Shown here: piece by piece, positions 30,290 to 33,743 of the stretch | Numbering within the stretch: position 1 is the first letter of the stretch | How the letters are laid out: each line of letters begins with the position of its first letter | Assembly: GCA_913045115.1 (NCBI GenBank) | Contig: CAJWPJ010000002.1 | Coordinates: 669 to 64,668, forward strand | From: an uncultured Gammaproteobacteria bacterium | Lineage (GTDB): Bacteria > Pseudomonadota > Gammaproteobacteria > GCA-002705445 > GCA-002716945 | Reading direction: 5' to 3' | Length of the DNA: 64,000 nucleotides | Made by a program: the position numbers and the translations under genes | Notes under the pieces: model-generated | Told to the model about the DNA's origin: nothing | Seen by the model: only the letters and a program-made list of their open reading frames with translations | Database searches by the model: none

Positions 30290-31081
30290 TTATCTAACTA
30301 TTAAATCCATGAAGTTTAATAACATTCTAGTTTCTCTCACATCATGAACTCGCAAAATCTTAGCTTTATTCCTAACCGCTAAAACTGTAGCAGCTAGTGA
30401 TCCGTATAACCTTTCTGATGCTGGCTTATTTATTACATTTCCAATCATACTTTTACGAGATATACCAGATAAGACTCTGCACCCAATTTGAGAAAATTTC
30501 TCCAGCTGGTTGAGTATTGTGTAGTTATGTTCGAGTGTCTTTCCAAAACCAAACCCAGGATCAATAATAATTCTATTCTTACTAATTCCTGATTTTAAAC
30601 ATAGATCTACCTTATCTTTCAGATATTTGAAAATGTCTTCGACGACATTATTATATTTCGGATTATCTTGCATATTCTTTGGTGTACCCTGCATATGCAT
30701 TAATGAAATTGATAAATTATTTTCTCGAATAATTTCTAACATAGCATCATCTTCAAGTGATGATATATCATTAACTATATCTATTTTATATTTAAGCAAA
30801 CTTTTGATTACATCGGCGCTTCTTGTATCGATAGAGATTGGTATATCAGTTATCTCTCTAACTGATTCTACTACAGGCATGATCTTACTTATTTGCACTT
30901 CACTTGATACAGGATTTGATCCTGGTTTTGATGATTCAGCACCGATATCTATAATATCAGCACCCTCTTCTATCAAATATTTTGCTTGTTTAACTGATGA
31001 AGAAATGTCGTTGTAAGAACCTCCATCATAGAATGAGTTTTCAGTTATATTTAGAACACCCATTATCTCAATCTTATTCAT
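30290..31081 (-). CDS. folP: Dihydropteroate synthase
   Basis: 263 aa pterin-binding TIM barrel (GVLNITENSFYDGG, IIDIGAESS, DPGFGFGK). Confidence 0.9.
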   Translation of the reverse strand: MNKIEIMGVLNITENSFYDGGSYNDISSSVKQAKYLIEEGADIIDIGAESSKPGSNPVSSEVQISKIMPVVESVREITDIPISIDTRSADVIKSLLKYKIDIVNDISSLEDDAMLEIIRENNLSISLMHMQGTPKNMQDNPKYNNVVEDIFKYLKDKVDLCLKSGISKNRIIIDPGFGFGKTLEHNYTILNQLEKFSQIGCRVLSGISRKSMIGNVINKPASERLYGSLAATVLAVRNKAKILRVHDVRETRMLLNFMDLIVR

Positions 31082-31775
31082 TACCTACTCTTAATTGATC
31101 CTGATATCTAGAAACGCGCTCGATAAATTTTTTTTGATACCAAAGAAACTCATTATCTTTAATAATAAATTCCTGAAATTCTAGTTTCGGAGTACAAACT
31201 AAAATCACACCTTGTTTAATATTTGTTTCATGTTGTAAGTTATGAGCTAATGCATATGCACACGTTTGAAGGAAATAGTCTGTTATCCATTCTCTTTTTT
31301 TTGTTTTTGTTGATGACTTAAAATCTATTATAGACTCCTCATTATCATATACACCACATAAATCTGTAGTTCCAGCATGCGATTTTGGGTAATACAAAGG
31401 TGTTTCACATCCCCATATCTCATCTAATTTTTTTTCAAGGGCTTGATTGATAATTACTTCGGACATTTTTTTTTCATTATCATTTAATATTTCAAAGTCA
31501 AGAGACTGTTTGCCATGAAGAGCGTCTTCGAGATATTTGTGCATTTTATCACCTCGGAGGGTTGACTCTTTAGAAATCCTAGTGGCTTCGGAGTATCCAA
31601 CTCTCTCTTTCCATGCGTTAAGTGAATCTTTTTCTTTTTGTGATTTGGTTTTTTCTAGAATGGTTGTTACAGATGGAACTTTTTCTCCGTTTAAACTATA
31701 GTGTCTTGCACCAGATTTATCCGTAGCTCTGTGCAAGCTTGTATAGGTAAATCTTTTATTCCAGAGGTGTAACAA
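31074..31775 (-). CDS. Free-standing RecB-family PD-(D/E)xK nuclease (PDDEXK_1/Cas4-like core, no Fe-S cysteine cluster)
   Basis: 233 aa with an apparent TTG start. Motifs: N-terminal PSVTTIL; motif II GTTDL(CGVYD); motif III IIDFKS, a DxK triad; then a Q/Y motif DYFLQTCAYALAH. These are the canonical order and spacing of the RecB/AddB/Cas4 nuclease domain. No characteristic Cas4 four-Cys cluster is present. The gene is inserted between ftsH and folP. Confidence 0.55.
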   Translation of the reverse strand: MLHLWNKRFTYTSLHRATDKSGARHYSLNGEKVPSVTTILEKTKSQKEKDSLNAWKERVGYSEATRISKESTLRGDKMHKYLEDALHGKQSLDFEILNDNEKKMSEVIINQALEKKLDEIWGCETPLYYPKSHAGTTDLCGVYDNEESIIDFKSSTKTKKREWITDYFLQTCAYALAHNLQHETNIKQGVILVCTPKLEFQEFIIKDNEFLWYQKKFIERVSRYQDQLRVGNE

Positions 31776-31832
31776 AGGTATAGTCCATGCTAGTAATGTG
31801 TCTATATACTAACATGAACTACATTCTATGTC

Positions 31833-33743
31833 TTATGATGCAGGCGATGCTGAAGGACTATCTTTCGAAGATACATCAGCGGATTTTCCTGATGAGCTAT
31901 TATCATCATCTGACCAGCTATCAGGTGCGTCAGGTACCTTACCCTCCATAATCTGATCGATTTGTTCAACGTCAATAGTCTCATATTTCATTAGAGCGTC
32001 TGCCATTAAATGCATTTTATCTAGGTTATCCTTGATAAGTTTGGTGGCTCTTGAATATTGGGTATCAATTATTTTTCTAATTTCACCATCGATAGAGCTT
32101 GCCGTTTCGTTGGAAATATTCTTATTATTCTGCGATGCAGACTTGCCAAGAAATACCTCTTGTTGCTCCTCTCCATAGGCAAGTGGCCCCATCTTATCTG
32201 ATAAACCCCACTTAGTTACCATGTTTCTTGCTAAATCAGTAGCTCTCTCAATATCATTAGATGCACCGGTTGTTACTGCGTCATCGCCGAAAATTAATTC
32301 TTCAGCAACTCTTCCACCAAATAGTGCAGCAATCATGCTATTGATACGCTGTCTACTGTTACTATATCTGTCTTCCTCAGGCAAGAACATCGTTACACCA
32401 AGTGCTCTGCCTCTTGGGATGATACTAACTTTGTAAACTGGATCATGATCAGGAACCAATCTACCAACAATTGCGTGACCTGCTTCGTGATAAGCAGTAA
32501 GTTTTTTCTCATCATCGTTCATAACCATAGATTTTCTCTCACCACCCATGAGAATTTTATCTTTGGCTTTTTCAAAATCATCCATATCAACAATTTTTTT
32601 GTTAGCTCTTGCAGCAAATAGTGCAGCTTCATTTACCAAGTTGGCCAAATCGGCACCAGAGAAACCTGGAGTACCTCTTGCTAATATTTTTGGATTAACA
32701 TCATTTGCTATTGGAGTCTTTCTCATATGTACTTTGAGAATCTGCTCTCGCCCACGTATATCTGGAAGAGGAACTGTAACTTGTCTGTCAAATCTTCCTG
32801 GACGAAGCAATGCTGGGTCTAAAACGTCCGGTCTGTTGGTAGCAGCAATAACGATGACTCCCTCATTACCCTCGAATCCATCCATTTCTACAAGGAGTTG
32901 ATTAAGTGTTTGCTCACGTTCATCATGGCCACCGCCTAGTCCTGCTCCTCTATGTCTACCAACGGCATCTATCTCATCAATGAAGATAATGCATGGGGCA
33001 TGTTTTTTTGCTTGCTCAAACATATCTCTCACTCTAGATGCACCGACACCCACGAACATTTCAACAAAATCAGAACCTGATATAGTGAAAAATGGGACTT
33101 TAGCTTCTCCTGCAATCGCTCTTGCTAGTAAAGTTTTACCAGTTCCTGGCGAGCCAGACATTAGAACACCTCTTGGAATATTTCCTCCAAGATTTTGAAA
33201 TTTTGCAGGGTCACGCAAGAAATCAACCAATTCTTTGACTTCTTCTTTTGCCTCTTCAACTCCAGCTACATCTTTAAATGTGACTTTGACTTGGTCTTCA
33301 GTTTGCATTTTTGCCTTACTTTTACCAAATGACATTGCGCCACGACCACCGCCGCCACCTTGCATTTGTCTCATGAAAAATATCCATACGCCGATTAGAA
33401 GTAAGAATGGAAACCAATGAATAAATATTTGAGCCAGGAATGATTGTTTTTCTGGGGCTTTTCCACTGATGCGAACTTTACCTTTTATTAATTCGCCTAT
33501 AAGTGCAGAATTATCAGTTTCAGGACTGTAAGTCATGAACGTCTCACCTGACTTGAATGAACCTGATATTTCTCTACCCGAGATTGTAACTTCCTCAACT
33601 TGCCCAGTTTGAACTTGTTGCATGAAGTCTGTGTAATTAAACTCTTGTGATGTGGCATTTCTTCCGCCAACACCTGTAAACAAAGACATAATCACTACTG
33701 CAATTATTGTCCATATAACTAAATTTTTGACTAAATCTCCCAT
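31833..33743 (-). CDS. ftsH: ATP-dependent zinc metalloprotease FtsH
   Basis: 636 aa. Two transmembrane helices, AAA+ motifs ([14 protein letters not shown]), Zn-binding HEAGHA, and a Ser/Asp-rich C-terminal tail. Confidence 0.95.

Follow-up and report, generated by a model that had tools for sequence, protein, structure and literature searches.

A chromosomal MGME1-like PD-(D/E)xK nuclease gene, probably a housekeeping exonuclease, between ftsH and folP in marine gammaproteobacteria

The NUC gene and its surroundings

The window analysed here, a 64-kb stretch of DNA, carries on its minus strand the genes rlmE, ftsH, NUC, folP, glmM, tpiA, secG and a tRNA, in this order, where NUC designates the gene under study. 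The base composition computed here is 34% GC. An earlier note on this DNA had described a 233-aa gene with a TTG start located between ftsH and folP and overlapping the latter by 8 nt, and both the reading frame and the overlap were recovered in our analysis (Table 1). As an in-frame TAG is found 11 codons upstream of the TTG, a longer reading of NUC is impossible. The TTG is found at the same position in 9/9 loci of the lineage to which the window belongs, and the start codon in clade B is ATG. At the N-terminus, the structural model has a pLDDT of 86-92 from about residue 2 onwards, and the alignment to the phrog_298 profile begins at residue 10. The NUC stop codon TAA occupies positions 31074-31076 and the folP ATG positions 31079-31081, the string ATGAATAA being common to both genes, which suggests translational coupling. 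Elsewhere, the NUC-folP junction consists of overlaps of 11-20 nt in some lineages and of gaps of ~10-35 nt in others. In E. coli K-12, the corresponding order is rlmE-ftsH-(89 nt)-folP-glmM-secG-leuU; since the ftsH-folP junction contains no gene, NUC is an insert relative to the E. coli arrangement.

Table 1. Positions of the features of the NUC locus in the window
Feature	Position	Strand	Basis or remark
NUC coding sequence, MGME1-family PD-(D/E)xK exonuclease (probable function)	31074..31775	-	233 aa, about 27 kDa
TTG start codon of NUC	31773..31775	-	First canonical start after in-frame stop
ftsH, upstream neighbour of NUC	31833..33743	-	Same strand
folP, downstream neighbour of NUC	30290..31081	-	Same strand
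NUC stop/folP start overlap, 8 nt, ATGAATAA	31074..31081	-	
RNA hairpin in the 57-nt ftsH-NUC spacer	31779..31823	-	17-bp stem, arms 31807-31823 and 31779-31795
Outer 4-bp stem	GACA 31829-31832 (just after ftsH stop) with UGUU 31771-31774 (start-codon UG)	-	
Residues 46-86, two long helices corresponding to the MGME1 helical arch	31518..31640	-	Model and HMMER alignment
E124, motif I (MGME1 E223)	31404..31406	-	MGME1 alignment, invariant, codon checked
D138 of GTTDL, motif II (MGME1 D238)	31362..31364	-	Alignment, invariance, codon
D151-F-K153, motif III DxK (MGME1 D251, K253)	31317..31325	-	Alignment, invariance, codon
Q170-T-C-A-Y174, motif IV QxxxY (MGME1 Q271, Y275)	31254..31268	-	Alignment, invariance, codon

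No helicase or cas gene adjoins NUC in the window, no CRISPR-like array is present in its 64 kb, and rmuC and sbcB are likewise absent from it. No uptake or nucleotide-salvage genes were found near NUC. The neighbours ftsH, folP and glmM carry no hint of DNA metabolism.

The spacer between ftsH and NUC folds into a hairpin of -24.4 kcal/mol (z -5.56 vs shuffles), for which RNAalifold gives 15 pairs, two of them with compensatory changes. This hairpin occurs in 9/9 TTG-start loci and in 0/7 ATG-start loci, a link behind which there are very few independent evolutionary events; one locus, L096, whose 3' arm is misaligned in the hairpin alignment, was scored by its single-sequence fold. Searches against Rfam returned no family for the hairpin, the only matches being chance ones to miRNA models (E 3-10). 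The stem is not followed by a T-run, the 57-nt gap contains no terminator-like site, and no comparable terminator-like hairpin is found in the E. coli ftsH-folP spacer. Promoter-like matches in the region are fewer than in shuffled sequence and were not used. Judging from gene spacing, NUC is probably transcribed together with ftsH, folP and glmM, and it would therefore be made constitutively. The hairpin ends 3 nt before the TTG, over the expected position of the ribosome-binding site; its masking of this position, combined with the weak TTG, probably keeps NUC translation low, and translation may possibly depend on ribosomes finishing ftsH. Alternatively, the hairpin may act in mRNA processing or stabilisation, or as a weak attenuator.

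Active site, fold and family assignment

The earlier note had reported a full set of nuclease motifs, which is indeed present: GTTDL starts at residue 135, IDFK at residue 150 and LQTCAY at residue 169. NUC falls within the PD-(D/E)xK superfamily, as D138 and D151-x-K153 are invariant and the top structural neighbours agree. The AF2 model of NUC has a pLDDT of 92.1 and a pTM of 0.88, and its fold is that of restriction-endonuclease-like proteins. Its leading structural neighbours are all PD-(D/E)xK nucleases; the best Foldseek matches are all MGME1 (TM 0.73/0.85), and Cas4 and ACE1 are found among the distant ones.

The sequence profiles point to the same family. The phrog_298 "exonuclease" profile matches NUC with an E-value of 1.8e-49 (169.7 bits), residues 10-222 of NUC being aligned to profile positions 42-255 (214/293 positions). 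A phmmer comparison of NUC with MGME1 gives an E-value of 1.8e-7 over residues 17-195, and a profile of the NUC family searched against the PDB retrieves MGME1 with an E-value of 6e-17 (positions 31-231) and no other PDB family at E<0.01. NUC resembles the MGME1 family in its full-length sequence, in its catalytic and metal-binding residues and in its helical arch. The catalytic and metal-binding residues of MGME1 are H180, E223, D238, D251, K253, Q271 and Y275 (PMC6237815, PMC3597694). Their equivalents in NUC, H79, E124, D138, D151, K153, Q170 and Y174, are invariant in 16 diverse relatives. The modelled helices H46-59 and H61-86 correspond to MGME1 alpha2 (143-160) and alpha3 (162-187), and this arch region includes W55 (W152 in MGME1) and the metal ligand H79, both of which are invariant.

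Human MGME1 (Ddk1/C20orf72; PDB 5ZYU, 5ZYT, 5ZYV, 5ZYW, 8XA9), in full mitochondrial genome maintenance exonuclease 1, is encoded by a disease gene. Like NUC, it is a single-domain PD-(D/E)xK protein of similar core size with neither an Fe-S cluster nor a fused helicase, and the two proteins have in common the residues of motifs I-IV, the histidine ligand, the two arch helices and the tryptophan. However, their identity amounts to only 21-23%, and NUC is bacterial and chromosomal and has no mitochondrial presequence. NUC is neither opisthokont nor mitochondrially targeted, and trees rooted on MGME1 group it with sequences from phages and bacteria; it is to be regarded as a homologue rather than an orthologue of MGME1. 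Human MGME1 scores 17-58 bits across all groups of cellular and phage members, and these scores do not place it closer to either. MGME1-like proteins have been described as restricted to Opisthokonta, phages and archaea being the sources of their nearest relatives (PMC3597694). MGME1 itself is an ssDNA-specific, end-dependent and metal-dependent DNase without RNase activity (PMC3597694, PMC6237815).

The assignment of NUC to other nuclease families was less satisfactory. The Pfam PDDEXK_1 profile (PF12705) covers only residues 135-192 of NUC and reaches 16.4 bits against a cut-off of 22 (E 0.0089). Some relatives with 53-55% identity carry precomputed PF12705 matches, which makes a PDDEXK_1 assignment plausible, though NUC does not reach the threshold. 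With the Cas4 profile TIGR00372, NUC scores 19.8 bits against a cut-off of 65 (E 5.7e-4). The four-cysteine Fe-S cluster of Cas4 is missing, as is any CxxC-type pattern: of the cysteines of NUC, at positions 123, 140, 172 and 194, C194 alone is invariant among relatives. The genomic context does not fit Cas4 either, ftsH and folP being the neighbours in 21/21 loci and no repeat array being found in the window. As to RecB, AddA and AddB, NUC has no fused or partner SF1 helicase. A two-gene module of the lambda Exo/RecE type was rejected as well, since no annealing-protein gene is found beside NUC (neighbours ftsH and folP) or beside its SAR11 copy (neighbours rmuC and sbcB); in contrast to RecE and lambda exonuclease, NUC shows no sign of a toroidal oligomer and no adjacent RecT or Beta. 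RecE, lambda exonuclease, RecB, AddA, AddB and Cas4 all match the structure of NUC much more weakly than MGME1 does. Matches of NUC to Phage_tail_2 and NTF2 (Pfam/NCBIfam) are spurious.

The description of NUC in the earlier note as a nuclease of the RecB/AddB/Cas4 type accordingly holds at the level of the PD-(D/E)xK/RecB-like superfamily and fails for RecB, AddB and Cas4 proper, the significant profiles being those of MGME1 and phrog_298 and the PF12705 and Cas4 matches being present but below threshold. Its observation that the gene is devoid of a helicase, a Cas partner and an Fe-S cluster agrees with both the neighbours and the cysteine pattern.

Conservation and relatives in SAR11 and phages

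A total of 1821 NUC homologues were retrieved at E<=1e-3, and the exact protein is encoded on 39 public contigs. Compared with a 96%-identical relative, NUC has a dN/dS of 0.042 at a dS of 0.385, which indicates strong purifying selection; the ratio was taken from this contig, as dS is saturated against relatives of 80% identity. The existence of homologues and of identical copies, together with the low dN/dS, shows that NUC is not a chance ORF. Its dN of 0.12-0.13 is below that of folP, glmM and tpiA, and its GC and GC3 equal those of its neighbours, i.e. its composition is native.

The host clade of NUC is, judging in part from the 34% GC, probably a SAR86-like group of marine gammaproteobacteria. 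The arrangement ftsH-NUC-folP was found intact, and the insert undisrupted, in each of the 21 related marine gammaproteobacterial loci that were compared, and the order is kept down to 50% identity for NUC and 36% for glmM. Both the restriction-endonuclease-like fold and the undisrupted insert run counter to what the earlier note had named as refuting evidence. In SAR11 (Pelagibacteraceae), which belongs to the Alphaproteobacteria, an orthologue is flanked by rmuC and by sbcB, the exonuclease I gene, in about 66/68 loci. This copy is 48-55% identical to NUC over its full length, retains all catalytic residues and forms the sister clade in the tree; its context differs (hisZ-hisG ... rmuC-NUC-sbcB-trx), and it starts with ATG in most lineages. 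It is labelled "genome maintenance exonuclease 1" in IMG. As rmuC and sbcB are classical recombination and repair genes, the position of the SAR11 copy between them points to DNA repair or recombination.

Most of the family is borne by phages (991 phage records, 579 IMG/VR contigs). The members of phrog_298 include pelagiphage HTVC027P gp27, HTVC023P gp85, HTVC008M and exonucleases of T4-like cyanophages, as well as proteins of the jumbo phages PA5oct and RaK2 and Kuttervirus Det7 gp28. These phage exonucleases have the same size and motifs as NUC, to which they are 27-42% identical in cultured phages and at most 51% identical in IMG/VR contigs, the alignments spanning almost the whole protein. 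No biochemically characterised member of phrog_298 was found in the literature. The phage copies are located in replication and recombination modules, next to the gp59 helicase loader, UvsW, clamp loader or DNA polymerase, whereas NUC is located in a chromosomal housekeeping operon without phage neighbours. In the neighbour-joining tree, the cellular clade, which comprises NUC and the SAR11 copies (70-74% bootstrap), is sister to HTVC027P-like viral contigs and is nested, with moderate support, among marine phage homologues. This nesting suggests an old exchange between phage and cell, followed by fixation in cells. NUC is not a recent insert but a gene that became fixed long ago in a marine gammaproteobacterial clade and in SAR11. 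Of the inserted orphan nuclease put forward by the earlier note, the insertion stands in comparison with E. coli; the gene is no orphan, given its SAR11 and phage homologues.

Proposed function and significance

We consider it likely that NUC is a stand-alone Mg2+/Mn2+-dependent DNA exonuclease of the MGME1/phrog_298 branch, which serves in housekeeping genome maintenance. A free ssDNA end would be threaded under the two-helix arch formed by residues 46-86 and would reach a two-metal site comprising H79, E124, D138, D151, K153, Q170 and Y174, where the strand would be degraded from its end. Likely substrates would be 5' flaps, resected ends and linear fragments, and the cellular role could be in repair, in recombination or in the processing of replication intermediates. 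The proposed activity, substrate (ssDNA or dsDNA ends), polarity and in-vivo role of NUC are carried over from MGME1, whose partner is Pol gamma. RecJ and exonuclease VII, which in E. coli are ssDNA-specific exonucleases with 5'-end activity, would be functional analogues, as this activity matches the predicted role of NUC, but their folds are unrelated to that of NUC (DHH for RecJ, OB plus helical for XseAB). Because the SAR11 copy is located beside the gene of ExoI, a 3'-5' ssDNA exonuclease, NUC would complement ExoI.

A different role would be that of a nuclease for nucleotide salvage or DNA clearance, which converts linear or single-stranded DNA, from damaged fragments or from outside the cell, into nucleotides in nutrient-starved, streamlined cells, repair and recombination being secondary. 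It has been suggested that phage relatives recycle dNTPs, e.g. in vSAG 37-F6 (PMC12404659), a gene called "MGME1" is among those reported as more abundant in open-ocean metagenomes (PMC10834444), and MGME1 itself takes part in the degradation of linear mtDNA. Constitutive expression, as implied by the operon, would also suit such a role. Nevertheless, we regard it as unlikely, as the SAR11 copy is embedded between repair genes, the TTG start and the hairpin suggest a low abundance of NUC, which is hard to square with bulk DNA degradation, and genes for uptake or salvage are missing nearby.

A function in anti-phage defence, with invading DNA as the target, or an origin as a Cas4-like remnant left by a defence or CRISPR system since lost, is very improbable. 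It would account for the weak partial matches to TIGR00372, to PADLOC Cas4_II (E 2.5e-5) and to phrog_1706 "CRISPR/Cas associated" (E 9.5e-6), and for the presence of Cas4 and ACE1 among the distant structural neighbours. However, the Cas4 score is far under its cut-off and the Fe-S cluster is absent, PADLOC gives no match beyond the weak Cas4 one, and the window is free of cas genes, CRISPR arrays and defence-island neighbours. Moreover, phages carry the family in their own replication modules. Defence genes are typically patchy and show fast turnover, whereas the position and sequence of NUC are stable across deep divergence, with a dN/dS of 0.04. An RNA-processing nuclease linked to the neighbouring rRNA methyltransferase rlmE and to ftsH, and acting for instance on rRNA or on mRNA 5' ends, we hold to be highly improbable. 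A recent prophage remnant or selfish insertion without host function would fit a mostly phage-borne family in which the cellular clade is nested in phage diversity, and yet its probability is close to negligible: phage genes flank NUC in 0/21 loci, its closest viral relatives reach no more than 51% identity, and it combines native composition and strong purifying selection with a conservation higher than that of folP, glmM and tpiA. Among the three functions offered in the earlier note, a repair or recombination exonuclease is thus favoured, while a defence remnant and RNA processing found no support.

The gene family, its fold and its likely chemistry were already known. As automatic pipelines also give relatives the name "genome maintenance exonuclease 1", we regard the finding as incremental; it does not define a new kind of system. 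In the papers searched, neither "MGME1-like" nor "MGME1 homolog" was found as a term. What is new is that close structural and catalytic homologues of MGME1 are strongly selected, fixed chromosomal genes in SAR11 and in the SAR86-like clade. SAR11 and SAR86-like bacteria together make up some of the ocean's most numerous cells, and the retention of an intact NUC in these two groups makes it a new member of a known family instead of a strange orphan. NUC also offers a testable bacterial model for MGME1-type end processing, and genome-streamlined bacteria may staff their DNA repair with phage-derived parts.

A more far-reaching scenario, which we put forward tentatively and think rather less than probable, is that a phage-type MGME1-like ssDNA exonuclease was captured a single time and became a core constitutive genome-maintenance enzyme of SAR11 and SAR86-like gammaproteobacteria, the two streamlined heterotroph lineages that are most abundant in the surface ocean. 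There it would replace a canonical bacterial 5'-end ssDNA exonuclease or end-processing enzyme of the RecJ, ExoVII, RecBCD or AddAB type, and in the lineage of the window its dose would be set by a dedicated hairpin and UUG start, which together would couple its translation to ribosomes that terminate on ftsH. Nothing was found in the literature on the recJ, recBCD and addAB content of SAR11. If true, the scenario would give the first MGME1-type system that is cellular and not mitochondrial, and with it a tractable model of the entry of MGME1 into eukaryotes. Genes of the NUC type may also explain the abundance of "MGME1" in open-ocean metagenomes (PMC10834444).

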